Positions 5,280 through 17,736 of a stretch of DNA of 64,000 bases are shown here, piece after piece (the stretch's first letter is position 1; each line of letters starts with the position of its first letter). The position numbers were made by a program, and so were the translations under genes. This DNA comes from an uncultured Methanoregulaceae archaeon. Its GTDB lineage: Archaea > Halobacteriota > Methanomicrobia > Methanomicrobiales > Methanospirillaceae. The stretch lies in assembly GCA_963701095.1 (NCBI GenBank), contig OY969564.1, positions 2,528,001 to 2,592,000 of the forward strand. The letters run 5' to 3'. The notes under the pieces are model-generated. The model made no database searches and was not told where the DNA came from. It saw only the letters and a list, made by a program, of their open reading frames with translations.

Positions 5280-7724
5280 TCAGGTCTGAGGCGCAGAGGC
5301 CAACCGGAATGCCTCCTTCGGTACAACCATTTCGAACCGCGCTCCTCTGCCCTGCTCGCCTGTTTCCCTGATCATTATAGCAGTAATATCAAGAATTTCC
5401 CGGGCAAGGAAGAGGCCCATACCGGTATTTCTTCCAAATCCCTGATCAAAAATTTTTTCCTTTTCATCAACAGGGATACCTAGACCGTCATCTTCGCAGA
5501 AAATGACCCGATTTCCATCGCGGTCTCCAACGGAGAACCGGATGGTTGTGACCCTGCCGCCATGCCGCACTGCATTGTCTATCAGATTGTAAAAGACCTT
5601 GTAGATCAGCGGATCGGCAAACACTTCCTCTGCAGCAGGAAGATCGTTTTTCACGAGGGTATCGCCTAAGAGAATATGCTTTTTTGCAGAATCGACAAGG
5701 ATATGGCAATTTTGCCATGCTGGTTCTGTAATCCCTATCTTTTCGTATTCTTTGGAAAACTGGATCATTGTATTAATACGCTGAGCAGCAAGGGTAACCT
5801 TCTTGAAATATTCATAGGATGAGGGATCCGGCAGTTGATCTTTTAGGAGTGAACTATATGCATTCAAGGTTAAAAGCTGGTTATTGATATCATGCCTGGT
5901 TATACTTGAAAGAAGATTGAGTTTTTTGTTTGCTTTAGAGAGTGCATCGCCAGTCAGTTTCCGCTCGGTGATATCCTCAATTTGGGCAGCAAAATAAAGC
6001 AATGTTCCTTGTCGATCGAGAATGGTAGTGATACGGAGCAATCCCCAGAGGATGCTTCCATCTTTCCTGATGTACCGTTTTTCTGTGCTGTATACCGGAA
6101 TTTTTCCTTCCACAAGATTCTGGATATATTGTAGATCACCGGGAAGATGATTCGGATGCGTGATATCTTTAAAGGAAAGGTCCATAAGTTCTTTTTCCGA
6201 ATATCCGGTCATGGCTATCCAGGCAGGGTTAACTGAAAAATAGTGGTAATCGGGAGTGATGAGCACCATGCCAACAGGACTGTTATGGAATATCTTACGG
6301 TATCGTTCTTCGCTCAGCCGAAGTTCCTGCTGGCTCTTATTCAGTTCATTGTAATTCTGCCGGAGTTCTTCTTCAGTCGCTGTAAGTTGCTCATAAGAAG
6401 CGTTCATTTCTTCGTTCATCGATTTCAGTTTCGCTTCAATTTCCATGCGCTCCGTTGTATCTCTTCCGACAGACTGGTATTCGATAACATGGCCATCAGC
6501 ATCAAAGGTTGCCCGGTCACTCCATTGTTGCCATCGCACCTCCCCGGAGGGCATAATGATCCGGTGGTCTAGAATTCCCACAGGATTCTCCGGGGAGAGG
6601 GCAGAAAGATGATCCTTCATCAAACGCAGATCTTCCGGAGGGATAACTACCGTATGATGAGATCCAATACATAAATTCTTGTCCAGACCAAAATACCGGC
6701 AGTATGCATCATTGACAAAGGTGAGCCTTCCGTCGACGGTAAACCGGCAAATAAATTCTGTCTGGTCTTCAACGACATTCCGGTACCGTTCCTCGCTCAA
6801 CCGTAGTTCCAGCTGGCCTTTGCTCATTTCTTCGTAATTCTGCCGGAGTTCCTCTTCAACTGTGGTCAATTCTTCAAATGCAGCATTGAGTTCCTCATTC
6901 TTGCGAAGCAGTTCATCTTCTGCCCGTTTGCGGTCAGTGATTTCCCGGATCGACTCAATTGCACCGACAACCGTACCCTTGGTATCGTAGAGCTGGGACG
7001 CAATGAACCAGAACGAGGCCCCTTTCCCGTTATTGAAATGAGGGATAGTAACCTCCGAAATGAGATTGTTTTGGTCCCTGATTACATTCTGATATTTTCC
7101 TGTGGTCACCGGGTCATTCTGGAGGACTAGATCGATCAGAACAGGACGCCGCTCACGGTAAAAGGGAAGCGCATATTCAAAATTGCCTTTTCCAAGGATT
7201 TGAGCTGCCCTGATGCCGGTCATCTTCTCCATTGCACGGTTCCATGCTATCACAAACCCGTAAGTGTCAATAGCAAAGGTTGCATCCGGAAGAAAGTTGA
7301 TGATATCGGCCTCTCTGCGCTTAAGATCCCTGATACTGATAACGGCTCTTCTCTGCTGGATCGACTGGCGGACCTTGTGTGCAAGTTCGGCAAACTGCGC
7401 TCTTGGCTCGCCGCCTTTCTGGATATAAAAGTCAGCCCCTTCATTTAATGCCTGAATAACAATCTCTTCCCGCCCTTTTCCTGTAAAAAGAATAAACGGG
7501 ATGGTATTTCCCGAAGATCTTACCATCTTTAAAAATTCTATACCGTCCATCTTTGGCATCTGGTAATCGGAGATGATTGCATCATAGTCACTTGTACTGA
7601 GAAGAGTAAGTGCATCAGGGATCGTTGTGACAATGTCGACGTTGAATTGTCCATTACATTCAAGGTAAAGTTTAGCTATTTCGAGAAGAGCTGGTTCATC
7701 GTCCACATAAAGAATTGTAAACAA
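5280..7724 (-). CDS. Hybrid REC-PAS histidine kinase
   Basis: N-terminal receiver (ILYVDDE, SDYQMP), three PAS domains, H-box ITRHDINNQL, NLIDNAVRHG, DDGLG, GMGLF. Confidence 0.93.
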   Translation of the reverse strand: MFTILYVDDEPALLEIAKLYLECNGQFNVDIVTTIPDALTLLSTSDYDAIISDYQMPKMDGIEFLKMVRSSGNTIPFILFTGKGREEIVIQALNEGADFYIQKGGEPRAQFAELAHKVRQSIQQRRAVISIRDLKRREADIINFLPDATFAIDTYGFVIAWNRAMEKMTGIRAAQILGKGNFEYALPFYRERRPVLIDLVLQNDPVTTGKYQNVIRDQNNLISEVTIPHFNNGKGASFWFIASQLYDTKGTVVGAIESIREITDRKRAEDELLRKNEELNAAFEELTTVEEELRQNYEEMSKGQLELRLSEERYRNVVEDQTEFICRFTVDGRLTFVNDAYCRYFGLDKNLCIGSHHTVVIPPEDLRLMKDHLSALSPENPVGILDHRIIMPSGEVRWQQWSDRATFDADGHVIEYQSVGRDTTERMEIEAKLKSMNEEMNASYEQLTATEEELRQNYNELNKSQQELRLSEERYRKIFHNSPVGMVLITPDYHYFSVNPAWIAMTGYSEKELMDLSFKDITHPNHLPGDLQYIQNLVEGKIPVYSTEKRYIRKDGSILWGLLRITTILDRQGTLLYFAAQIEDITERKLTGDALSKANKKLNLLSSITRHDINNQLLTLNAYSSLLKDQLPDPSSYEYFKKVTLAAQRINTMIQFSKEYEKIGITEPAWQNCHILVDSAKKHILLGDTLVKNDLPAAEEVFADPLIYKVFYNLIDNAVRHGGRVTTIRFSVGDRDGNRVIFCEDDGLGIPVDEKEKIFDQGFGRNTGMGLFLAREILDITAIMIRETGEQGRGARFEMVVPKEAFRLASAPQT

Positions 7725-7903
7725 AATATGACATCCCAGATTGAACAGTAGAGGAATTTTCTTTCTGGAGTTATTATAGATTTTTTTAAATCGATGGCAT
7801 TATAAAATAGATTTATTCAGTTGTTTTTTTGCAAGTCGTTGGGGGAGAATAGTACCAAAATTGTTTGATGGTTTCGCATGCTCGCGAAATTTAAAATGGG
7901 AAA

Positions 7904-7961
7904 TGCGAGGGATGGGATTCGAACCCAAGAACTCCTGCGAGACTAGGCCCTGAACCTAGCG
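7904..7961 (-). pseudogene. 3' portion of the split host tRNA-Leu(CAG); contains the left att core
   Basis: Minus strand reads cgctaggttCAGggcctagtctcgcaggagttcttgggttcgaatcccatccctcgca (anticodon arm, variable arm, T arm, acceptor 3' strand); 5' half absent. Confidence 0.92.
7945..7961. repeat. Left att core (17 bp) aggccctgaacctagcg
   Basis: Exact direct repeat of 15671-15687; spans the anticodon loop. Confidence 0.9.
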
Positions 7962-8002
7962 GTAAACAAAGGCACTATATCTTATGATGCAGATTAAGGA
8001 TC

Positions 8003-9164
8003 ATGGAAGATGTTTTGACAAAATACAAGCGGCTCGATCCGGTCAATCATCGGTATTTCGTTGATTATCTACGGTACCTCCAGCTTCGTAACATCCGGGA
8101 AACGACGATCACAACGAAACTCTGGAAGATCTACGGATACCTGATCTGGTCAGACTTCCGGGATGCGAAGACAGCACAACCGCAGGATCTCGAAAACTTC
8201 TATCTTCAGCGGAGAAAGGAGCGATCACCCATCACGGCATTTGGCGATATCCAAGAGCTCGCCCTGTTCTTCCGTTGGTTACTCCCGGACCGTGAGCTTG
8301 TCAAGTTCAAACCGCAGAAGCCCCGGGTCGATGTGCCGCCGGAAAAGGTCTTACAATCTGATAATATACGGGGAATACTGGAATACTGCGAGTCCCAGCG
8401 GGATCGTGCCCTGGTTGCCGTGGCATGGGACAGCGCGGCCCGGATCTCCGAGCTTCTCGATATCAATATCGGGCACGTCAACTTTGACCGGTACGGTGCG
8501 GTGATCAGCGTGAGTGGTAAGACCGGGCGCCGGAATATCCGGCTCGTGAGCTCAGGTACCGGACCTTCAAGCCTGGATCAATATCCACCCTCTCAAAGGC
8601 AACCCGGACGCCCCGCTCTTTGTCACCTCCCGGAGGCGTGGGAACACGTCTCTATCCCGGCTCACCGTGCGCCGGGTGCAGAACATCTTTGCCCGGCTGG
8701 GAGATCTTGCAGGTTGTCAAAAGGACACCAATCCCCACGCATTCCGGCACGGGCGTCTTACAATCCGGGGCAAGCAGCTTACCGAGTCCGAGCTCCGGGA
8801 GTATGCCGGATGGTCCAAAGGATCGAGCATGGCCCAGGTCTATGTGCATCTGTCCAGCCGGGATATCGACAATAAGATTCTGGCGGTGGATGGGGTCAAG
8901 CCGGAAGAAGAACCGGAGGCGGACCCGATGGCAGCGCAGATATGCCCCCGGTGCAAGAAATCGAACGCCCCGGACGCAATGTACTGCGACAGATGCAGCA
9001 TGGCCCTTAATGATGAAGCACTGGATAAGATCACCGCTCTACAAAATATCAATGAGGATCCGGACGCTCATGCGGAGTACGCGGTATGGCTGAAGGCTCT
9101 GAAAGACAATCCCGCTGGCCATTACGAGCGCCGGCAAGGCATGCGGAGTACGCGGTATGGCTGA
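8003..9164 (+). CDS. Tyrosine integrase with C-terminal zinc ribbon; +1 frameshift at ~8555
   Basis: Catalytic motifs SAARISE, GKTG, HAFRH, GW and QVYVH; CPRC..CDRC; removing one G at 8555/8556 joins ORFs 8003 and 8667 (RLVSS-VPDLQAWINIHP). Confidence 0.92.
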
Positions 9165-9177
9165 AGGCTCTGAAAGA
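9069..9177. repeat. Perfect 38-bp direct repeat x2 separated by a unique 33-bp insert
   Basis: catgcggagtacgcggtatggctgaaggctctgaaaga at 9069-9106 and 9140-9177; insert caatcccgctggccattacgagcgccggcaagg at 9107-9139. Confidence 0.95.
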
Positions 9178-9200
9178 GAAGCGGGGTTGATGGGGGATAT

Positions 9201-9782
9201 TCATCGCTTTTTCCGGTAAAATCTCCCGGATTCGTCCAGCTCATATTCCTTTTTAAACTCACGCCGCTCTTCTTCAGTATTCGCTGTTTTATAGACCTCT
9301 TTTCCCTTCTCAAGAACTATAAGCCTCCACGGCCCCTCATATTCGAGATATTCTTCCTTGTTTCGTGGGTGGAGGTCCTCGTATTCTTTTAATAATTTAT
9401 GATTTTTCAACACCTTTCTAGCGTCAAAAATTCTCTTTTCCTGTTCCACCCATTCCCTTGAGAGCGCCTCGCAGGCCATCTTGTACCCTTCTTCATAACT
9501 ACGGAATTCAAAGCGGGTAGGAGCCCCTTCCGGGAGCCGATACGTGGCGAGATTAGTACCTTTCCGGGTTTTCTTTTCAACGAGCCTTTCCTCTACAAGC
9601 TCTTTGAGCAGCCGGAACAGGGTAGCCTCTGGAATATCCGGATGTTTCAGATCCTTGGCCTTGCATCCCGGGTGATCGCGGATGAACGAGAGGATCCGGG
9701 GTATGTAATTTCCAACCTCTCCCCGCCGTCCGTTTTGAAACTTTATATACCGGTTGACCCATTCCAAGTCGATAGTTTCCAT
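9201..9782 (-). CDS. Winged-helix DNA-binding protein (candidate element repressor)
   Basis: RILSFIRDHPGCKAKDL..IPEATLFRLLKELVEERLVEKK wHTH pattern; divergent from the replication operon. Confidence 0.75.
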   Translation of the reverse strand: METIDLEWVNRYIKFQNGRRGEVGNYIPRILSFIRDHPGCKAKDLKHPDIPEATLFRLLKELVEERLVEKKTRKGTNLATYRLPEGAPTRFEFRSYEEGYKMACEALSREWVEQEKRIFDARKVLKNHKLLKEYEDLHPRNKEEYLEYEGPWRLIVLEKGKEVYKTANTEEERREFKKEYELDESGRFYRKKR

Positions 9783-9872
9783 AATTCAACGTCCTTATTA
9801 CTATCACTATGATATTATTTATGAGAGTTAATAACATTATGCCTACATAGAGAAAACCGGAGGAAAGCCTCA

Positions 9873-10019
9873 ATGAGAATTTGTTTAAATCTTCAAAAAG
9901 GACTCGTCGAACGAATCGATAAACAGCGTGGCGACATCCCACGCTCTCGGATTGTCGAACGGGCTCTTATGGAAAAGTATAGTGAAACTCCGGAAAAGGC
10001 AGTCGGGAGTGGTGAGTGA
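9873..10019 (+). CDS. 48-aa ribbon-helix-helix (CopG-like) protein, missing from the ORF track
   Basis: MRICLNLQKGLVERIDKQRGDIPRSRIVERALMEKYSETPEKAVGSGE; GGAGG at 9859-9863; TGATG coupling to the next ORF. Confidence 0.8.
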   Translation: MRICLNLQKGLVERIDKQRGDIPRSRIVERALMEKYSETPEKAVGSGE

Positions 10020-10222
10020 TGGTAGCTTCGCAGGCAGTCCAGCACGCCACCCCCGGTTTATCTTTCGATGCAGGATCACAAAAACCCGCGTTTACTCCTA
10101 TCCGAGTACCTCATGCCACCGTTGAAGCATACCGACGATCCGAACCATTGTTCACGGAATTTCTGATTGAATCCGGGCGGGTCATTGTTGAAGGAATGCC
10201 GAACCGGCCGGAGGGGTCCTGA
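10019..10222 (+). CDS. Hypothetical protein (67 aa)
   Basis: Start and stop overlap with both neighbours (TGATG). Confidence 0.65.
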   Translation: MVASQAVQHATPGLSFDAGSQKPAFTPIRVPHATVEAYRRSEPLFTEFLIESGRVIVEGMPNRPEGS

Positions 10223-10434
10223 TGAAGAAATGTAGCCAGCCCCGGGCAGGGCAGGCCAGAAAAGAATTGGACATGATTAGTTCAACTCGTCCAATATTAA
10301 ACTATTGCCCGGCCTGCTCTAGCGACGGCACTCTCTGTGGATATTATGAGACAGACCGATGCCCGCACCGCGGAGGAGCGTTGGAAGAACTCCATCGGAT
10401 CTTCACTGAAAAGAGGCTGGAGGATGAACCGTGA
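10222..10434 (+). CDS. Small Cys-rich hypothetical protein (70 aa)
   Basis: CPAC..C..CPH; GGAGG upstream; coupled to neighbours. Confidence 0.6.
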   Translation: MKKCSQPRAGQARKELDMISSTRPILNYCPACSSDGTLCGYYETDRCPHRGGALEELHRIFTEKRLEDEP

Positions 10435-10958
10435 CAGCCTACGACAACATCCCGGAACCGCTAGTAGGAGCCCGCCGCTGGGTAACGTTCCGGGTAATCC
10501 CGCAGCCAGACGGATCGTTAAAAAAGATCCCGCTGACCATCCGGGGATCGATGGCAAGATCCGACACACCGGGAGACTGGTGTACCTTATCAGAGGTTCG
10601 CCGGGCGATCCAATTCGACATTGGCAATGCCGCTGCATTTGCTCTAGGCGAAGACTATCCGCTCCGGGTACTGGACCTCGACCACTGCATCGATGACCGG
10701 GGGAACCTATCGCCTCTAGCAGTACAGATCGTCAGCCGGGCCGGGGATACCTACATCGAAAAATCAGTGTCCGGTCACGGTCTACACGTTCTCGTATGGC
10801 GGTCTGAAAATAATTATCCGACCAACCCGGTCCCGGGTCTTGAAATCTATGGTGGGGCTCCGAGGTTCATAATCATGACCGGGAACTTGTGGGGGCCGAT
10901 CCCAACCAGCGATCCGGAATTCAACCGACAACTGGCATACGCGGAGGCACGAACTTGA
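10431..10958 (+). CDS. Stand-alone AEP primase-polymerase catalytic domain
   Basis: KKIP, LDLDHC (DxD), EKSVSGHGLHV (SxSGxGxH) and EIY..RFIIMTG motifs of phage/plasmid prim-pol domains; GTG overlaps the upstream TGA, GGAGG at 10420. Confidence 0.85.
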   Translation: MTAYDNIPEPLVGARRWVTFRVIPQPDGSLKKIPLTIRGSMARSDTPGDWCTLSEVRRAIQFDIGNAAAFALGEDYPLRVLDLDHCIDDRGNLSPLAVQIVSRAGDTYIEKSVSGHGLHVLVWRSENNYPTNPVPGLEIYGGAPRFIIMTGNLWGPIPTSDPEFNRQLAYAEART

Positions 10959-12886
10959 CAGCTGCCGCAGAAAACCCGACCGAACCGGAATACCGGCTGT
11001 GTTGTGACGATGTGCCGGAAGAGCCTGAAGAACTGGACGTGATGGAAGAACCGGACGAGGAGCCGGAAGAACAGGAAGAATGGGAAGAACAGACAACGGC
11101 CGCCAAAGTCACCAGAAAGCCGGAACCGGCTGTAATAATCAATCACACTACACAGCCGGCTAAAGTGCCGCAGAAGCAATCCGTGAGGCCAACACCGGCA
11201 CCTGTGGTAAATTCAGAGGCCGACCCACTGACCGGATTCTTATCGTCCCTGTCACCGTCATGTAAAGCCGAGGCTGTGAAGTATTCAGAAATTCCCGATA
11301 GGGACCTCAAGATCCCGACCGGGCAGAGCGCGACGGCAATCCTTGCGACATTCTGCAAGAAGTACGCAACCGTCCCGAAAGGCCAACGGAACCACACACT
11401 GTTTAAGTTGTCCTGCACTCTTCGCCGGTGCGGGTATGAGGAAAAAGACATCCTCGCGGGACTGTGGCAATTCTCCCGGGAGCATTGCAAGCCCCCGCAC
11501 AAGCAGAGCGACCGGAGTGATGTTGAGGAACTCACGCAACTCTCCAGGAGGGCCGCCCGCCATGTGCGGCCGGGTTTTCCTGTCGAGAAGGTGAAAGGGG
11601 AGCACACAACTGTGGCGAATGTATCGAACCCAGCCCCCGCCGCGATTGATTTGGATCCATGCGGGATTGATCCGGGAAACATCACCGGGGAAGAGATCAA
11701 AGATCTGATGTTAAAAGGGTTTCAGGCGAACTCCGCTGATATCGGATCGAATGATTCCTCCCTAATTTGCCTGTTGTCTTACATTGGAGGGCGAGAACTT
11801 ACCGGAGACGGACTCCACCTGAAAGTGTCCGGGGAATCACAAGGGGGGAAATCGATCACGATTGGTGCCGGACTGAACTGTTTACCCCCAGAGGACATAT
11901 ATGCCGGGGCCTGCACGCCGAAAGCGCCGATTTACGACAGCAGCCTTCAATCTGGAATCATCATAAAAATTGACGAATCCCAAAAATTAGAACCGGAGTT
12001 CTTGGCACTGATGAAGGAATCAGTATCGACGTTTCAAACCCCGGTCCTGTATCGAACGGTTATTGATAAAAAAACCGTAGTTAAACAGATCCCGCCGCGG
12101 ATTACCTGGGTGTTTGTCTCTGTCGATTCTATCGGGGACGAACAGGTGTTAAATCGCCTCTTCCCCCTCGGAGTTGATAGTAAGGAAAAATATCAGAACG
12201 TCACGGACTTCAGGCTGAAACGTAGGGAGGACGGGATTTCGAAAAATGCTGTGACTGACGATGTACTGCGAATACGTGCCGCCCTCCGACACTATCGTGA
12301 CAACCGGTTTAGGGTTCTGGTCCCATTTGCGTCACGGATCCGGTATAAGTCGCAGGTCAAAAGAGACCAGAGACTTCAGGAGTTTTTCGAAAATTGTCTG
12401 ATCTATCATGCAGCGCTTTGCTACCGGGAGCGGACCCACGATACCGGATCTGATGGAGTAATCACAGTTGAAGCAACCGAAGATGATTTTTATGCGGTCC
12501 TGAAACTACGGATCTTTAACCGACCCACAGAGGCAACCAACCGATTGAGTCCGTCCGAAATCCAACTGATCAAGGATATCGTGGCAAAAGGCCTCAATGG
12601 AACCACGTACCCCATCCCGCGGCAGGATCTGCTCAAGGTGGGGGCCGGTTATTCACAATCCCGACTATCCAACATCCTTAGGGGTCGCAACGGTGAAGAC
12701 AACGGGCTCTTGTGCAAGATCCCGGGATTCACTGAGGTGCAGGCGTCAACCGCAAACCGGGACGATTTGTGCCGATTCACTGAAAGGGCATATATCATCC
12801 CGGCAGAAATTTCAGATCTGGTACCGTCCAACGAGGGTATCGATGACCAATGTCAATCAATAGCCTGCCTGATCCCTCACGCCTGA
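10955..12886 (+). CDS. Replication protein: acidic linker, PriCT-like domain, P-loop (AAA+/MCM-like) helicase, C-terminal wHTH-like region
   Basis: PKGQRNHTLFKLSCTLRRCG..HCKPP (PriCT-1-like); Walker A GESQGGKS; Walker B IIKIDE; LNRLF Arg-finger-like; TTG at 10955 overlaps the primase TGA, GGAGG at 10943. Confidence 0.8.
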   Translation: MTAAAENPTEPEYRLCCDDVPEEPEELDVMEEPDEEPEEQEEWEEQTTAAKVTRKPEPAVIINHTTQPAKVPQKQSVRPTPAPVVNSEADPLTGFLSSLSPSCKAEAVKYSEIPDRDLKIPTGQSATAILATFCKKYATVPKGQRNHTLFKLSCTLRRCGYEEKDILAGLWQFSREHCKPPHKQSDRSDVEELTQLSRRAARHVRPGFPVEKVKGEHTTVANVSNPAPAAIDLDPCGIDPGNITGEEIKDLMLKGFQANSADIGSNDSSLICLLSYIGGRELTGDGLHLKVSGESQGGKSITIGAGLNCLPPEDIYAGACTPKAPIYDSSLQSGIIIKIDESQKLEPEFLALMKESVSTFQTPVLYRTVIDKKTVVKQIPPRITWVFVSVDSIGDEQVLNRLFPLGVDSKEKYQNVTDFRLKRREDGISKNAVTDDVLRIRAALRHYRDNRFRVLVPFASRIRYKSQVKRDQRLQEFFENCLIYHAALCYRERTHDTGSDGVITVEATEDDFYAVLKLRIFNRPTEATNRLSPSEIQLIKDIVAKGLNGTTYPIPRQDLLKVGAGYSQSRLSNILRGRNGEDNGLLCKIPGFTEVQASTANRDDLCRFTERAYIIPAEISDLVPSNEGIDDQCQSIACLIPHA

Positions 12887-12894
12887 CCACGACG

Positions 12895-13170
12895 TCCATT
12901 ACACCGCTACACACCTTTTGGGAGAAAAGGTAAGAAAGCAACCGAGAATCCAAAAACGTTAAACAAACCCATTTAACTTTTTTCTCCTACCTTACCTTTT
13001 TTTAGAAACAGTGTGTAACATCCCTCATTTTTACGTCTGTATAGTAGTAGTGTGTAGTGGCTGTGAAATGGTGTGTATTATGCTCGGAGGCGTACTGTGT
13101 ATGGGCTGTGTAATATGCTCATCCATTTCACACCCATTTCACACCCACTACACAGCACTTTACACAGCCC
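12895..13170. repeat. Putative replication origin: TGTGTA/TACACA iteron-like motifs and inverted repeats
   Basis: Inverted pairs 13051-13071/13134-13154 (20 of 21 bp), 13103-13113/13160-13170 (11 of 11), 12925-12934/12991-13000 (10 of 10); directly after the helicase gene. Confidence 0.7.
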
Positions 13171-13844
13171 AGACCCCCCCGGAATCCCCCCAAGCTCCTT
13201 ACCTCGAGAGTAACTCCGACAGTAAGTCCAAAACCCTGTTCCTTGTCACGAGGAGAGCACCGACTGTAAAAAAGAACCTGCAAGAATAATAACAACTTCT
13301 AAATATTATCCATGGTAATAATCCCAAAAATACCAACCATCCGCAGACGCGATGACCCGGACCCTCCTCTACCCATAACCATCAATGTTTTTTCAAGCAC
13401 ATTCCAAAAATGGTATGCGTCTCAATTTTGGAGGTCAACCGGGCCGTAACCGGGTGATAATCGCTATACGGGCTCCGTTTGCCAAAAGTCCCGAGAGATA
13501 TTGCCCCGATTGATTCCTGGACCTGTGTCCAGGGTGCCGGGCAAAGCCCTTGGTAGCTGTGGTCCTGGTCCCGGGCCCTGCCGAGCGGTGCCCTCTCACG
13601 TCGAACTGTCGCAGAATAGTTGTTCTGCGCAATGTGACCCCTCTATATAGTGCACGTCGTAGCGTATGCATTGCGTAGAATAATGATGAATAATAGTGGG
13701 TGTACAAGTGCACTTGTTCTAGGTTCACATCCGGAAGATAGAGCGCGATATATGCCAAGACCCTCGTACAAAAATCCGGGAATTTTCACCTTTTTTAGGC
13801 CTACCCGCTTCTACAAAAATCTTAAAAAAATGGGTTTTGGGAGA

Positions 13845-14081
13845 TCAACCGCCGGTAATATTCCGGACTGCACCGGAGAGCCCAGTGGTCCCCCTGGCGA
13901 TCTGGTTTGTCACGTTCGAGTAGTCCCGGGCGGTATCCTGTTGGATGTGGGGGTTTGCTGCCGATTCATAAGCTCCGATCCCGACACAGACCACAAGCAG
14001 AGCCCCAAGAACCAAGGCAGCGATGACAATCAGGATAGAGACTGTGATCGCGACTTTCCCACAGAATGAAACCAGGCTCAT
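13845..14081 (-). CDS. Small membrane protein (78 aa)
   Basis: One long hydrophobic segment VAITVSILIVIAALVLGALLVVCVGIGA; SD-like GGTGA upstream. Confidence 0.7.
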   Translation of the reverse strand: MSLVSFCGKVAITVSILIVIAALVLGALLVVCVGIGAYESAANPHIQQDTARDYSNVTNQIARGTTGLSGAVRNITGG

Positions 14082-14159
14082 TCTCTCACCTTTTGTATGG
14101 TGCTTCTTCCTCCGAGGGGATAAAGGTTGTTTTTTCGCGGGCGTCAGGTCGTAGAAAAT

Positions 14160-14186
14160 GTGTTCAACCGGTTCACCGTGTTCACA
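14160..14186. promoter_or_regulatory. Three tandem 9-bp repeats (core GTTCA) between divergent genes
   Basis: gtgttcaac-cggttcacc-gtgttcaca; TATA-like TTTATAT at 14214-14220. Confidence 0.5.
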
Positions 14187-14247
14187 ACTGCATTTGTTTT
14201 AACTAAAGTAAAGTTTATATTGGATGGTGCAGTATAGACTATTCATT

Positions 14248-14415
14248 ATGAGAACCATCGTCAGAGGAGAGAAAACGTACTCCTTAACCTCCGTGGCAAT
14301 CCCTGCGGATTTGAAGGCCCGGGCACAGGATCACGATGTCAACATGACCCAGGTCTGTGTGAATGCACTTGAACGGGAAGTCGAACGTCTGGAGAAGGCA
14401 GGGGTGCCGGCATGA
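14248..14415 (+). CDS. RHH protein (CcdA/VapB antitoxin-like)
   Basis: TSVAIPADLKARAQDHDVNMTQVCVNALEREV; ATG ~28 bp after a TATA-like box. Confidence 0.75.
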   Translation: MRTIVRGEKTYSLTSVAIPADLKARAQDHDVNMTQVCVNALEREVERLEKAGVPA

Positions 14416-14585
14416 GATCTGAAGAGCCCCAGACCGCTTCCGATGTGTGGTCCATCGACCGCAAACGGCAGGCAGAGACAGCCCTCCGGGAAAACGAAGC
14501 GTACCAGCGCGGTATGCTTGAAGGAATGCGGAAGTTTAACAGTACCCTGTTGAACCCCGAAAACAATCAGGAGATGGTGCAGTAA
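14412..14585 (+). CDS. 57-aa hypothetical protein, missing from the ORF track
   Basis: MRSEEPQTASDVWSIDRKRQAETALRENEAYQRGMLEGMRKFNSTLLNPENNQEMVQ; ATGA overlap upstream, next ATG 1 bp after the stop. Confidence 0.65.
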   Translation: MRSEEPQTASDVWSIDRKRQAETALRENEAYQRGMLEGMRKFNSTLLNPENNQEMVQ

Positions 14586-14586
14586 T

Positions 14587-15159
14587 ATGGCCGTTTCCGA
14601 AATGCAGATCGAAATTCTGCTCCGGCCCGTCCTTGCCGAGATGGAAAGAGGTTTTTTTAAAGTCGCCGATAAGCTCCAGCGGGACCAACTGGCGATCAAT
14701 GTTCAGGAGATTGAGGCAGGGTTTAGGAACGGCCAAAAAGCAACCCTGGCACAATACGCGGGCCTCAAATACTACAAAGACGACGACCCCGAACTGCGGG
14801 GCCTTCCAAAAGGGAACCGTAATATGGAACGGGCAAAGTTCAATAAGGGTGTCCGTGATGTCCTGCGAGCGATCCGGTGGTACCGCAAGCACCCAAACGC
14901 AACCGAACGAGATCTAATCCAGCTCCGGCAGATACTGCGGGATTTCCCGTCGACTCTGGATATCCGGGCGATTCCGACACTGGTGATGTGGGGTGATGTA
15001 CTTACGATGCTATCACGGGCCCAGACCGATGCAAAATTCGATCTCGATATGGAGGAGGACGCAGCTGATGAGAATATTCTCAAACCCCGGCATCCCGGTT
15101 CAAACCCGGAGGACGACGTGATGATCCGCAAGACTGATTTCCCGGAGTTAGACCGATAA
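14587..15159 (+). CDS. Hypothetical protein (190 aa)
   Basis: Operon context with tight spacing; no recognisable motif. Confidence 0.7.
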   Translation: MAVSEMQIEILLRPVLAEMERGFFKVADKLQRDQLAINVQEIEAGFRNGQKATLAQYAGLKYYKDDDPELRGLPKGNRNMERAKFNKGVRDVLRAIRWYRKHPNATERDLIQLRQILRDFPSTLDIRAIPTLVMWGDVLTMLSRAQTDAKFDLDMEEDAADENILKPRHPGSNPEDDVMIRKTDFPELDR

Positions 15160-15269
15160 TGCCCGCAAAACCGATTCGGTGCAGACAATGCGGACGGGTG
15201 TTCGCGGACCGGATGACCTTAATCCTGCACAAACCCTGTAAGGGCGTACCAGTCAAAACCAAACCATGA
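15159..15269 (+). CDS. 36-aa C2HC/C2H2-type zinc-finger microprotein, missing from the ORF track
   Basis: MPAKPIRCRQCGRVFADRMTLILHKPCKGVPVKTKP (CxxC-x3-F-x5-L-x2-H-x2-C); TAATG coupling. Confidence 0.7.
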   Translation: MPAKPIRCRQCGRVFADRMTLILHKPCKGVPVKTKP

Positions 15270-15528
15270 CCGGGGGGGCGAGCGGGTTTGTCACATTTTC
15301 CCGCGATGAACCCCGTGCCATCAAACCCCGTTACTACATTTTTTACACTCCCTGGGGGGGAAATTACAACCCCCGGGGGAATCGTGCCTTTTACCACAAT
15401 TGACTACCACCAGCATCGACAGCGGCGCCTCATAGACGCGTTTGCGCGGCGTTTCTCGTGCCGGATAGGTAAAAGTATGTAACAAGTGGAAAAAAGGCCG
15501 GTCTTAAGAGAAACAAACTTCAGAAAAG

Positions 15529-15613
15529 TGCGAGGGATGGGATTCGAACCCAAGAACTCCTACGAGATTAGGCCCTGAACCTAACGCCTTTGACCTGGCT
15601 TGGCTACCCTCGC
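15529..15613 (-). tRNA. Complete tRNA-Leu(CAG), 85 nt, inside the element
   Basis: gcgagggtagccaagccaggtcaaaggcgttaggttCAGggcctaatctcgtaggagttcttgggttcgaatcccatccctcgca folds as a cloverleaf with a long variable arm; TTTATA ~42 bp upstream. Confidence 0.96.
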
Positions 15614-15670
15614 CCAACTCTTTTTTGAGGGATCTTGTTTTTGTGCGATGCAGCGTATAAACCCTGTCCA

Positions 15671-15714
15671 AGGCCCTGAACCTAGCGCCGTTGACCTGGC
15701 TTGGCTACCCTCGC
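15671..15714 (-). pseudogene. 5' portion of the split host tRNA-Leu(CAG); contains the right att core 15671-15687
   Basis: Minus strand reads gcgagggtagccaagccaggtcaacggcgctaggttCAGggcct then diverges; TATA-like TTTATTAAA at 15738-15746. Confidence 0.92.
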
Positions 15715-15775
15715 GCCTGTATAGATTACGCTCTTGGTTTAATAAAGGTAAGGGAATGGGGATTGTGGCCGGAAA

Positions 15776-17607
15776 CTACTGTGAGTTCTGACCGTTTGCA
15801 GCCCGTTTGAGTTCCCGCTCCCGTAGTTCAATTCTCCGGATTTTACCTGAGATGGTTTTGGGCAGGGAATCGACAAACTCGATTGCCCGGGGATATTTAT
15901 ACGGCGCTGTCACCTTTTTTACATGACTCTGGAGATCCCGGACCAGAGCATCTGACGGACTAAACCCGGGTTTTAAGATCACAAACGCCTTGACGATCAA
16001 GCCCCGGATGTCATCGGGGGAACCAACAACTGCTGCCTCCTGGACAGAAGGATGCTCAATAAGAGCGCTTTCCACTTCGAACGGACCGATACGGTAACCC
16101 GAAGCTTTGATCACGTCATCGTCACGGCCGATGAACCAAAAATAACCGTCTTCATCCTTATACGCCTTGTCGCCAGTGTAGTACCAACCATTCACAAACG
16201 ATTTCTTGTTCTCTTCGGGATTGTTGATATACTCGGTAAACATGCCGACCGGCCACGGATCAAGCTTGATCGCAATTCTTCCCTCTTCATGGCCTCCTAC
16301 CGGGTTCCCGTGCTCATCATGAAGTTCGATTATCCACCCGGTGCTGGTTTTCCCATAGCCCCAAAACGCGCCTCCATACAGGGAAATGTCCCGATACACA
16401 GTACAGTTTCGGTCTGGCCGTAGCCTTCGTAGATGGTCAGGCCGGTTGCGTCCTTCCAGGCTTTGATAACCTCGGGGTTGAGAGGCTCGCCGGCACTTAC
16501 GCAGTGGCGGAGTTCGGAGAAGTCAAACTTGTCAAGATCGGCGAGGATCAGCATCCGGTAGATAGTAGGGGGGCAGCAGAATGTCGATATGCCGTACCGT
16601 TCGATCAGCGGCAGGAGTTCGGTCGCGTTAAACCGGCCCCGGATATCGTAAACGAAAATGGCAGTCCCCTCAAGCCACGGGCCGTAGAGTTTCCCCCATG
16701 CACTTTTTCCCCAACCGGTATCAGAAAAGGTGAAATGGAGGTCGTTCTGGCGGACATCGTGCCAGAACCGGGAGGTCACCATATGACCAAGTGCATAGCT
16801 CTGACTGTGCAGCACCATCTTTGCTTCCCCGGTAGTCCCTGAAGTAAAGAAGATGAGCATTGGATCGGTAGCTTTGGTTCTTTTCATACCGGGAAGGTTA
16901 ACCAGTTTTGCCGAGACCGGTGCCGGGTAGTCGAGTTCAACTGGGTAACTGATCCATCCGGATCTTTTGCCATCAATGAGGAAGCGGCAGGTCAGGGAAG
17001 GGCACTGGCTTGCAATAGCATCAATTTTATCTGCAAATTCTTCGGACGTGATCACCATCTTGATATCAGCCGCGTTAATCCGGTACTTCAGGTCGTGTTC
17101 GGTAAGCATGGTCGGGGCCGGGCAGTAGACCGCTCCGCGTTTAATGAGGGCAATAGTGGCAATCCACCACTCCGGTACCCGGGGCAGCATAATGAGAACA
17201 CGGTCGCCTTTGTTCACACCGTACTTGATAAGCATATTAACGACCTGGTTGGAGAGACGCATCAGGTCCCAGAATGTGTATTTCTTTTCGTCGCCTTTCT
17301 GGTTCGTCCAGATCATGGCAAGCTTGTTCCTGTCTTTCTTTGCCCATGCGTCAATAACATCAAAACCGAAGTTGAAGTACTCGGGAACCTCGATATGGAA
17401 ATCTCGGTAGGTAGCGTCGTAATCGCGCATGTTCGGCCCGGGTGCTCCGGTATCCGGAAGGGTACATGCGAGGCTGGATGTATTTGTAGTCAGGTGACCG
17501 GAACAAGCCTCTGCAATCCAGTCAGAACGCGAAATCTTCCGATGTTCACAGACCTTATCGATACTACTTGTCAGGGTATCGTCCATGGAAATTGAATACC
17601 GCACCAT
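15776..17607 (-). CDS. Acyl-CoA synthetase (AMP-forming) with N-terminal RHH domain; frameshift at ~16338
   Basis: FFTSGTTGEAK, EGYGQTE, GRDDDVIK and LPKTISGKIRR motifs; N-terminus MVRYSISMDDTLTSSIDKVCEHRKISRSDWIAEAC; one missing base joins GKPAPG-WIIELHD. Confidence 0.9.
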
Positions 17608-17736
17608 ACATTTCGTTTTGTTGGTGCACTTTATCAGTATTTTGCTTTTCTCATGAACCAAAATATCATATGGTGCTATTTTCTGGTGCTCTCAACTAAA
17701 AAATGCTAAAACTAAAAGAGATTGAAAAAGTGATTC

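Follow-up and report, generated by a model that had tools for sequence, protein, structure and literature searches.

A mobile element that splits a tRNA-Leu(CAG) gene of Methanoregula and carries a complete tRNA-Leu(CAG) gene

Introduction

In classical integration into tRNA genes, the attP site of the element holds the 3′ part of the tRNA, and the gene is rebuilt. A scheme that sorts tRNA-integrating elements by sublocation was reportedly set out by Williams in 2002. Several actinobacteriophages, including Fionnbharth/K4, phages of Cluster L and others, follow tRNA-dependent lysogeny, in which the core is short, the tRNA is not rebuilt and the phage carries a tRNA whose isotype is identical (PMC10865867). 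The need for the carried tRNA was shown by genetics (Guerrero-Bustamante and Hatfull, mBio 2024), and in the accessible part of that article the authors expected a wider occurrence of the system (PMC10865867). Among archaeal satellites, only pSSVx and pSSVi had been described before the haloarchaeal SRCEs were proposed, according to the available portion of that proposal (10.1101/2025.02.15.638363). Here we describe E1, an element of ~7.7 kb in a Methanoregula genome, which occupies positions 7945-15687 of a stretch of 64,000 nucleotides called the window in the following (GenBank assembly GCA_963701095.1, contig OY969564.1; G000:C1:2528001-2592000 in our numbering). The genome of which the window is part, G000, is a single contig of 2.63 Mb and was scored as 86% complete.

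E1 is confirmed as a discrete integrated mobile element within the tRNA-Leu(CAG) gene of Methanoregula. It is likely an integrative, self-replicating plasmid-like element that splits the host tRNA-Leu(CAG) gene and brings its own replacement. An earlier note, made from the letters alone, had likened this stretch to the phage-inducible chromosomal islands (PICIs) and named an integrated cryptic plasmid as an alternative; the alternative is the best fit. Boundaries, split gene, carried gene, empty sites, recurrence among relatives and a contig with joined ends were observed directly and are presented first.

Results and discussion

Boundaries of the element and the split tRNA gene

E1 is bounded by a perfect 17-bp direct repeat, AGGCCCTGAACCTAGCG, found at each end (7945-7961 and 15671-15687). 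The repeat, or core, coincides with the host tRNA-Leu(CAG) anticodon stem-loop and is at the same time the overlap of two orphaned tRNA halves. Three tRNA-Leu pieces were found, all on the minus strand: a 3′ half, which extends from the anticodon stem to the 3′ end, a complete gene, and a 5′ half, which stops past the anticodon loop. Both halves have a C-G pair in the anticodon stem, whereas the complete internal tRNA has U-A there; therefore, the halves belong together and the complete tRNA is a different gene. Besides this pair, three other positions distinguish the carried tRNA from the split gene. Within 7800-15800, Rfam recognised a tRNA only at 15529-15613 (48.7 bits, gathering score 29), while neither ARAGORN nor Rfam detected a tRNA at 7901-7961 or 15671-15714 (Rfam at E≤1 for 7901-7961). 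Since Rfam finds only the complete gene and the halves belong together, the host gene was cut in its anticodon stem-loop and was rebuilt at neither junction.

The complete tRNA-Leu(CAG) sits between the split halves, 57 nt inside the right core. The earlier note had ended the element on the right with a tRNA and an attachment (att) site; both are present, but the att core belongs to a second, split tRNA-Leu gene and the tRNA itself lies inside E1. The region with the spacer, 15179-15687, is 83% identical to a second element, E2, located at another chromosomal site. When the 187 nt between the start of the 5′ half and the end of the carried tRNA were folded, z was -3.0 and no interpretable feature emerged.

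The carried gene is the only Rfam-supported tRNA-Leu(CAG) in the assembly. ARAGORN made one other CAG call, at position 2,214,249 of G000; it was rejected as a second tRNA-Leu(CAG), with no Rfam tRNA match up to E=10. The carried tRNA presumably serves as the replacement for the split host gene.

Empty sites at the orthologous locus

On the right, E1 is flanked by the acyl-CoA synthetase gene together with the initial 27 nt of the 5′ half; among 108 genomes in the genus, 105 have this flank conserved. On the left lies a paralogous sensor-kinase gene, which did not help in establishing synteny. Sixteen loci with the right flank were compared, namely the best matches and those close to an integrase match. 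One intact tRNA-Leu(CAG) abutting the flank, without spacer or second tRNA, was present in eight of these loci (L066-L072 and L079), all from other genomes of the genus, so that the boundaries given in the earlier note are real. The intact tRNA of L071 has the sequence of the 5′ half at E1 joined to the 3′ half. The 5′ half at E1 abuts the acyl-CoA synthetase flank exactly like the intact tRNA of the empty sites.

Two other loci (L074 and L075) showed the three-piece layout of E1 at the orthologous position, and the stretch of L076 contained an integrase and a 3′ fragment only. A single tRNA was found in L073, L077, L078 and L080, where the flank was unaligned in the stretch or aligned only from position 147. 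The locus of G086 (L065), the closest relative at this site, was considered as an occupied site and left unscored; it has N between the tRNA pieces and the flank duplicated on both sides.

A classical integration was considered as well. According to this explanation, the complete tRNA at 15528-15613 would be the host gene, reassembled from a 5′ part of the host and a 3′ part of the element, and the 44 nt at 15671-15714 would be an unrelated relic left by an older event. A 61-nt repeat with 93% identity connects 7901-7961 to the complete tRNA's 3′ part, as is usual in classical integration. Nevertheless, the empty sites contradict this explanation, because their tRNA lies exactly at the 44-nt piece, against the flank. 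Moreover, in its anticodon-stem pair the 3′ piece agrees with the 44-nt piece and not with the complete tRNA, the spacer and the complete tRNA recur at the site of E2 and in other genomes, two genomes described below (G081 and G344) have a carried tRNA of foreign sequence type, and a contig that joins the ends of E1 includes the complete tRNA. We regard a rebuilt tRNA as extremely improbable.

The tRNA-Leu(CAG) site is a hot spot for integrases of more than one family. In L070 (G226:C63), where the tRNA-Leu(CAG) site is otherwise empty, 9667-10497 encodes another type of integrase (29% identical), ~460 nt from the 3′ end of the tRNA.

Related elements and the integrase clade

A sister element of E1 is present in the same genome. 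In E2 (G000:C1:315,979-323,973; L009 2979-10974), the interrupted host gene is one for tRNA-Leu(GAG), and the complete tRNA inside the element is likewise a tRNA-Leu(GAG); E2 also encodes a lipoprotein, a D5-type primase and a serine recombinase. The first anticodon base (34) is the one position at which the tRNAs carried by E1 and E2 differ, and the two cores also differ there. Sister elements of 7.7-8.0 kb were found in G000 and G300.

The search with the E2 integrase revealed a match at E≤1e-20 in 202 out of 401 genomes of the order. Twenty-six integrase loci were compared, consisting of E1, E2, two further loci, 20 among the best matches on long contigs, and two from the survey of empty sites. 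The 3′ part of a tRNA-Leu was located just upstream of the integrase in all 24 loci checked, 22 of them by BLAST and two (L045 and L064) by eye. The far end was visible in nine loci (E1, E2, L012, L045, L046, L048, L064, L074 and L075); in the other 17 it lies beyond the contig or beyond ~18 kb. All nine share one layout, with a 3′ half, the integrase, a complete tRNA-Leu, a spacer of 43-65 nt and an orphaned 5′ half, and in all nine the carried anticodon is the split anticodon (CAG in six, GAG in two and UAG in one). The integrases belong to two subfamilies that are ~41% identical, one with a core of 17-18 bp and the other with a core of 9-10 bp.

The carried tRNAs of the elements in G081 and G344 are of another acceptor and T-arm sequence type than the split host gene. 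This indicates that the tRNA moves with the element, and a hybrid of host 5′ and element 3′ parts could not fold. The att cores of the G081 element differ at several positions, so this copy is probably fixed. As the copy appears fixed, the G081 host would depend on a foreign tRNA gene. The G081 element (L045; G081:C1:1,315,500-1,335,100) is a 13.8-kb relative at the same tRNA-Leu(CAG) locus, with a cargo that includes a GNAT acetyltransferase and a D5-type primase.

Members of the clade were also found in tailed viruses. Caudoviricetes sp. vir524 (BK063669.1), a circular record of 38.5 kb with the host given as Methanomicrobiales, possesses terminase (small and large), head and neck genes. Its genome contains the module in free form: tRNA-Leu(CAG) is followed by a spacer, a lone copy of the anticodon-loop core and the integrase gene, with the order and orientation of the joined ends of E1. 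The vir524 integrase is 41% identical to that of E2 and 74-75% identical to those of the elements in G263 and G344. Similar to vir524, the IMG/VR locus L089 shows the tRNA-spacer-core-integrase order, with an integrase 79% identical to that of vir524. The search of IMG/VR with the E2 integrase gave no match.

The relative in G263 (L074; G263:C69:7,500-14,400) measures 4.3 kb and has both ends intact. It harbours genes for an integrase, a ribbon-helix-helix (RHH) protein, a tail-fibre-assembly chaperone (Pfam E=3e-15) and a sugar epimerase, and probably represents a tailed provirus of which the two ends are left. The 11-kb element of G307 contains an open reading frame (ORF) of 626 amino acids (aa) rich in Thr, Gly and Ser (L046 7848-9728), which has no Pfam or PHROG match and could encode a surface or virion protein.

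Further traces of the family were present in the chromosome of G000. Four decayed tRNA-Leu copies or halves were found in C1 (171,870-171,913; 371,585-371,671; 1,070,261-1,070,340; 1,099,815-1,099,877). At least two of the four have an element-type anticodon stem, and two are near integrase fragments (169,966-170,841 and 1,097,786-1,098,307). These sequences resemble remnants left by former elements of the E1 family. A third region in reverse orientation spans the contig ends (G000:C1 ~2,613,900-2,625,686 and 1-1,200; L010 and L011) and encodes a PrimPol protein and a nucleoside triphosphatase (NTPase) related to those of E1. It also contains the conserved non-coding block of E1 (13745-13845) in two copies, and genes for paralogues of the membrane protein, for surface proteins with PKD repeats and for a serine recombinase.

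Joined ends and integrity of the element

Logan contigs of four runs from three studies were compared over the window positions 7600-16000, with X1 as the likely source run. E1 was covered end to end at 90-100% identity by contigs of runs from the three studies. A contig of 332 nt from run X7 passes from 15523-15670 directly into 7945-8067, with 17 letters fitting either side, and includes the carried tRNA. It represents an attP junction, formed either in a circle or between two tandem copies.

The E1 integrase, analysed on the intact E2 copy, matches NCBIfam XerA_Arch (E=2e-21, far below the family cut-off), and its C-terminus is a zinc ribbon (Pfam DZR). At the DNA level, the E1 gene is 94% identical to the intact 371-aa gene of E2. 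In the assembly it is found in two frames, with one extra base at 8555. This base is absent from the contigs of all four runs (in run X1, 67 of 87.7 depth), and without it the gene has the same reading as in E2; therefore, the frame break is an assembly or strain indel. A tandem duplication of 71 bp at the 3′ end of the integrase gene (9069-9180) is absent from three of the four runs (X2, X5 and X7). Single-base indels at 8555, 13326 and 15157, within 8.4 kb, disagree consistently with the short-read contigs of the four runs. The host acyl-CoA synthetase gene beside E1 (15776-17661) is likewise split over two frames. The several indels, the split neighbouring gene and the completeness of only 86% for a single-contig genome point to assembly indel errors and not to decay of E1. 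The G000 assembly seems to contain many indel errors, and its frameshifts are not to be taken as pseudogenes.

These data bear on the explanation that E1 has a broken integrase and is what remains, immobile and in decay, of a larger provirus or plasmid. The two frames and the 71-bp duplication of the assembled integrase would agree with it, and so would the several decayed relics of the family in the genome and the 4.3-kb relative in G263, which does resemble a provirus remnant with its tail-fibre-assembly gene. However, the frame break is missing in the short-read contigs of all the runs, including the likely source, and the assembly shows indels elsewhere. Both att cores are perfect, and the replication module described below is complete. 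The earlier note had held that homologues found only within much larger elements would make E1 a remnant. E1 is not a remnant, as sister elements of the same size exist, near-identical copies occur in four runs from three studies, and its ends are joined in one contig. Decay is consequently considered very unlikely.

Gene content

The features of E1 are listed in Table 1. The parts named in the earlier note (att, integrase, winged helix-turn-helix (wHTH) regulator, RHH protein, small ORFs, primase, helicase (here the NTPase), repeats, membrane ORF, operon and tRNA) are all present in the order given there and within the stated coordinates. The operon, which had been counted as four genes, actually consists of five overlapping genes including a 36-aa zinc-finger ORF. 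No capsid, terminase, portal, relaxase or VirB4 gene was detected in E1 by Pfam, PHROGs and NCBIfam searches, which bears out the earlier observation that no capsid, terminase, relaxase or VirB4 gene could be recognised. The comparison of the E1 DNA with plasmid and phage records gave matches at the tRNA only, and Rfam found nothing across E1 besides tRNA.

Table 1. Features of E1 and of the flanking tRNA halves (window positions).
Feature	Position	Strand	Basis or remark
Orphaned host tRNA 3′ half (attL)	7901..7961	-	93% identity over 61 nt to 15526-15586
Left att core (anticodon stem-loop)	7945..7961		17/17 repeat of 15671-15687
Tyrosine integrase	8003..9164	+	Pfam Phage_integrase on both pieces; PHROG integrase E=1.6e-11
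193-aa putative winged-helix regulator	9201..9782	-	Weak HTH matches
48-aa RHH-like protein	9873..10019	+	RHH_1 E=0.05, below cut-off
Small ORFs, 68 aa and 70 aa	10016-10222, 10222-10434	+	ORF list
AEP/PrimPol primase, 175 aa	10431..10958	+	PHROG DNA polymerase/primase E=4e-23
PriCT-1 and P-loop NTPase	11042..12886	+	PriCT_1 E=1.8e-7; Walker A/B by eye
Iteron-like inverted cluster, candidate origin	13000..13180		TGTGTA motif statistics
Conserved non-coding block	13745..13845		Identity to E2 and two further copies
78-aa protein, one hydrophobic span	13845..14081	-	ORF list
Five-gene operon	14224..15403	+	RHH (63 aa), orf57, orf190, 36-aa zinc-finger ORF (15159-15269), orf45
Complete carried tRNA-Leu(CAG)	15528..15613	-	ARAGORN; Rfam 48.7 bits
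57-nt spacer from carried tRNA to att core, part of E1	15614..15670		Kept in E2; within joined-ends contig
Orphaned host tRNA 5′ half (attR), right core 15671-15687	15671..15714	-	95% identity over 44 nt to 15570-15613

Replication module and candidate origin

E1 possesses its own replication module, recognised by homology and motif statistics, which consists of a PrimPol primase, a PriCT-NTPase and an iteron-like cluster directly downstream. The best solved relative of the primase is 7ola_A (E=5e-8), and NrS-1-type primases are also among the best; 7OLA is the PriRep5 protein of SaPI5. Primases of the archaeo-eukaryotic (AEP) type are common to plasmids and viruses, and the match to SaPI5 is therefore not specific.

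The ORF of the NTPase has ~614-665 aa, is open from 10889 and has an uncertain start; Walker A (GESQGGKS) and Walker B (IIIKIDES) motifs were recognised by eye. A word search gave twenty homologues. Those close to the NTPase are separate proteins of 608-624 aa, whereas more distant ones are fused to a PrimPol domain (P0010 and P0014). A frameshift or a programmed shift between primase and NTPase was considered and rejected: although fused forms exist, the close homologues are stand-alone, so the arrangement in two genes is natural and needs no frameshift. The NTPase had no match in PDB, in the phage or plasmid sets, in IMG/VR (protein or alignment) or in JGI metagenome contigs. It is presumed to be the replicative helicase or initiator.

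Among the 401 genomes of the order, 199 have a match to the NTPase at E≤1e-15, and outside G000 these are mostly domains with ~30% identity in ORFs of ~1000 aa. Such ORFs are often found a few kb downstream of related integrases in Methanomicrobiales. This suggests a large undescribed group of integrase and primase-helicase elements, predicted to exceed 18 kb.

The motif TGTGTA occurs 22 times in the window, and seven of these copies, five on the plus and two on the minus strand, lie in the 181 nt of 13000-13180 (0.04 expected, Poisson P ~5e-14). The cluster begins 114 nt past the stop of the NTPase gene. Inverted repeats, including I1, I4 and I7, were found at 12908-13174, as well as an 11-nt tandem repeat. 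The sister elements carry a D5-type primase and lack the TGTGTA cluster. This absence where the replicase differs fits a cognate pair of initiator and origin, and 13000-13180 is considered a candidate replication origin.

Regulators, conserved operon and other small genes

The earlier note had placed divergent regulators beside the integrase. The two ORFs are indeed divergent and 90 nt apart, but their wHTH and RHH matches are under the family cut-offs. Residues 29-83 of the 193-aa ORF gave weak matches to HTH_IclR, MarR_2 and PadR (E 0.006-0.07), and two sub-threshold PADLOC matches were obtained for this ORF (E 0.002 and 0.006). In the elements of G307 and G081, ORFs without homology to it take the same place on the same strand. 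For the orphan genes, nothing else was obtained with NCBIfam and PADLOC. The first of the small ORFs, of 68 aa, is kept in E2 and G300, with 74% identity to E2 over 43 aa.

Paralogues of the 78-aa membrane ORF, with 44-59% identity, are encoded in E2, at 1,087,355 of G000 and twice near the contig end. Immediately 3′ of the gene for this membrane protein lies a non-coding block (13745-13845), which shares 97% identity with E2 over 70 nt and ~90% with each of two copies close to the contig end. The block is better conserved than the neighbouring genes and contains a TATA-like box and several T runs. It had no Rfam match, and may act as a binding site or terminator or encode a small RNA.

The five genes of the operon overlap stop to start. 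The first one encodes an RHH protein of 63 aa, which is CcdA-like (E=2e-4, just below the cut-off). All five genes are present in E2 and four in the G300 element (orf45 unscored), despite the different replicase there. Since the operon is kept beside att with different replicases, it goes with the att/tRNA/integrase end and not with replication. From this position and from the RHH protein encoded by its first gene, we would guess, with little to go on, that it acts in recombination directionality or in maintenance. The search for orf190 gave eight homologues by word search and 17 profile matches among 1.84 billion representatives. Structure prediction of the orphan genes, which had been proposed in the earlier note, was applied to orf190 and did not reveal a known fold: the AlphaFold2 model is all-helical with a mean predicted local distance difference test score (pLDDT) of 63.6, Foldseek against PDB gave nothing at E≤0.001, and the ESM Atlas contained no usable match.

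Relationship to phage satellites

Taken literally, the first label of the earlier note would make E1 a genuine satellite of a virus and thereby an archaeal equivalent of the PICIs. Helper infection would lead to excision, replication and packaging into capsids of the helper, and the orphan genes would redirect packaging or interfere with the helper. The layout of E1 is similar to that of PICIs, with an integrase, putative divergent regulators, primase and NTPase, an origin after the replication gene, and small orphan genes. In SaPIs, the ori is likewise immediately downstream of rep, as stated in the accessible text (PMC9371898). The best solved relative of the primase is the SaPI5 primase-helicase, the integrase clade and the tRNA-core module are common to tailed viruses of Methanomicrobiales, and a gene for a large terminase is present in the same genome. 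The latter (G000:C1:807,993-808,658; L085) matches Terminase_6N with 57 bits in a frame of 454 aa, without an HK97-type capsid match, and indicates a putative tailed provirus or remnant.

Nonetheless, the likeness to PICIs and satellites is in layout only. Searches of Pfam, PHROGs and NCBIfam revealed no terS, capsid, portal or known interference gene, and for the small interference genes that the earlier note lists in the PICI layout, no terS, capsid-size or remodelling, redirecting or interference match was obtained in Pfam, PHROGs, NCBIfam or PADLOC. PHROG matches in E1 were restricted to the integrase and the primase. Neither orf190 nor the NTPase had a tblastn match among 50,697 phage records, and the integrase and the NTPase were not found in IMG/VR. 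E1 has no DNA or protein in common with the region around the one terminase gene of the genome, and the match to the SaPI5 primase is unspecific, as described above. To our knowledge, PICIs use att sites that are not used by prophages. In G263 and G344, the tRNA-Leu(CAG) anticodon loop at the locus of E1 harbours elements with an integrase 74-75% identical to the tailed-virus enzyme, so this trait of PICIs does not apply to E1. In the available portion of the proposal of SRCEs, the archaeal satellites described so far have at least one virus-derived morphogenesis gene (10.1101/2025.02.15.638363), whereas none is recognisable in E1. A satellite of this kind is considered unlikely, and an integrative plasmid-like element remains the preferred explanation.

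Proposed mode of integration

In the proposed mechanism, the tyrosine integrase would recombine the attP core of 17 bp with the host tRNA-Leu(CAG) gene at its anticodon stem-loop, which has the identical sequence. As attP would hold the core alone, without the 3′ part of the tRNA, integration would leave two dead halves and the host gene would be cut and not rebuilt. The carried tRNA-Leu(CAG) would stand in for the lost gene and make the integration tolerable, and it would free the element from the need for a matching host tRNA body. Excision at the cores would restore the host gene and release a circle of 7.7 kb, which could be replicated by PrimPol and the PriCT-NTPase acting at the iteron cluster. 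The divergent wHTH/RHH pair would be the likely switch.

Several points weigh against this interpretation. The genome also has a tRNA-Leu(UAG), which might read CUG by wobble, so that the host could perhaps do without the carried gene; expression of the carried tRNA and the need for it are deduced from sequence, and no RNA run was found to contain the stretch. The 71-bp duplication at the integrase is carried by the assembly but not by the three other runs. No named helicase family was matched by the NTPase, the role of 13000-13180 as an origin that fires is deduced from motifs, and the wHTH and RHH assignments were made on sub-threshold matches. The joined ends in run X7, which come from another sample with 4 of 271 letters differing, would be explained by tandem copies as well. 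In run X1, the mean contig depth is 9.0-9.1 in the flanks and ~9.5-11 inside E1; the comparison of coverage with the flanks, as recommended in the earlier note, thus gave equal depth and no sign of replication, contig depth being a weak measure.

A broader interpretation is that the carriage of a whole tRNA is an adaptive device of the entire Methanomicrobiales integrase clade, beyond compensation of damage, and that E1 may also be the first archaeal satellite of tailed viruses; we consider it rather unlikely. If so, no hybrid tRNA would be needed, and elements could cross between species with different tRNA-Leu bodies; carried tRNAs of foreign type are seen in G081 and G344. A parallel change of one base in the core and in the carried anticodon could allow a jump between isoacceptors, as between E1 (CAG) and E2 (GAG). 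As a satellite, E1 may share the att/tRNA/integrase module of the tailed viruses and rely on them for transfer.

Significance

No archaeal description of tRNA integration by splitting and replacement was found in the literature, most subscription journals being outside the coverage of the search. The strategy is new as one used by a whole tRNA-Leu-specific integrase clade of Methanomicrobiales, and this clade spans tailed viruses, a provirus remnant (G263) and small plasmid-like replicons. Also new are the tRNA built into the att region, the anticodon matched over three isoacceptors, and the tRNAs of foreign type resident in host chromosomes. The combination of a split tRNA and its replacement, proven only in 2024 in mycobacteriophages, is now seen in methanogenic archaea.

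For genome annotation, this means that the only tRNA-Leu(CAG) of a genome may be a mobile, foreign gene, while the 'host' gene consists of two unannotated pieces and relics of the module are scattered in the chromosome. The 17-bp target, the integrase and the tRNA cassette could serve as a tool for site-specific integration in methanogens, similar to the use proposed for the mycobacterial systems in the accessible part of that work (PMC10865867). If a tailed virus does package E1, it would be the first such satellite in Archaea.

Comparison with known systems

Similar to classical tRNA-integrating elements, E1 has a tyrosine integrase, a crossover in the anticodon stem-loop, and an integrase gene that lies beside att and is intact upon integration. 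However, its attP lacks the 3′ part, the tRNA is not rebuilt and a whole tRNA gene is carried.

E1 shares with PICIs an integrase at one end, divergent small ORFs, primase and NTPase, a repeat-rich candidate origin downstream, small orphan genes and the absence of virion genes, its replication being predicted from homology and motifs. It differs in the lack of a terS, capsid-size or interference gene, in its smaller size of 7.7 kb, and in a tRNA site that is also used by relatives of a tailed-virus integrase. Like pSSVx, pSSVi and the haloarchaeal SRCEs, E1 is a small archaeal element with plasmid-type replication proteins including primase-helicases and possible spread by a helper virus, as far as the available text on these satellites describes them (10.1101/2025.02.15.638363). 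According to the same text, pSSVx and the SRCEs share at least one gene with the helper (ATPase and/or capsid protein), and the viruses are spindle-shaped (10.1101/2025.02.15.638363); in E1 no such gene is recognisable, and the nearest viruses are tailed. The tailed virus vir524 is a full virus, which has no gene in common with E1 besides the tRNA-core-integrase module.

The closest described system is tRNA-dependent lysogeny. E1 agrees with it, on the accessible part of the article, in the tyrosine integrase, the attB inside a host tRNA gene, the short core, the tRNA that is not rebuilt and the carried tRNA with the same anticodon (PMC10865867). The requirement for the tRNA has genetic proof in the phages, according to the same text (PMC10865867), whereas for E1 it is deduced. 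In contrast to the phages, E1 has an archaeal host and a XerA-like integrase with a C-terminal zinc ribbon, and its lack of virion or lysis genes is that of plasmid-like integration and not of lysogeny. The core has 17 bp in E1 and 9-10 bp in the other subfamily, compared with ~10 bp in actinobacteriophages, as given in the accessible text (PMC10865867). Unlike in the actinobacteriophages, the carried tRNA of the E1 clade is located 43-65 nt from the core, within the att region, and its anticodon matches the target in three isoacceptors.

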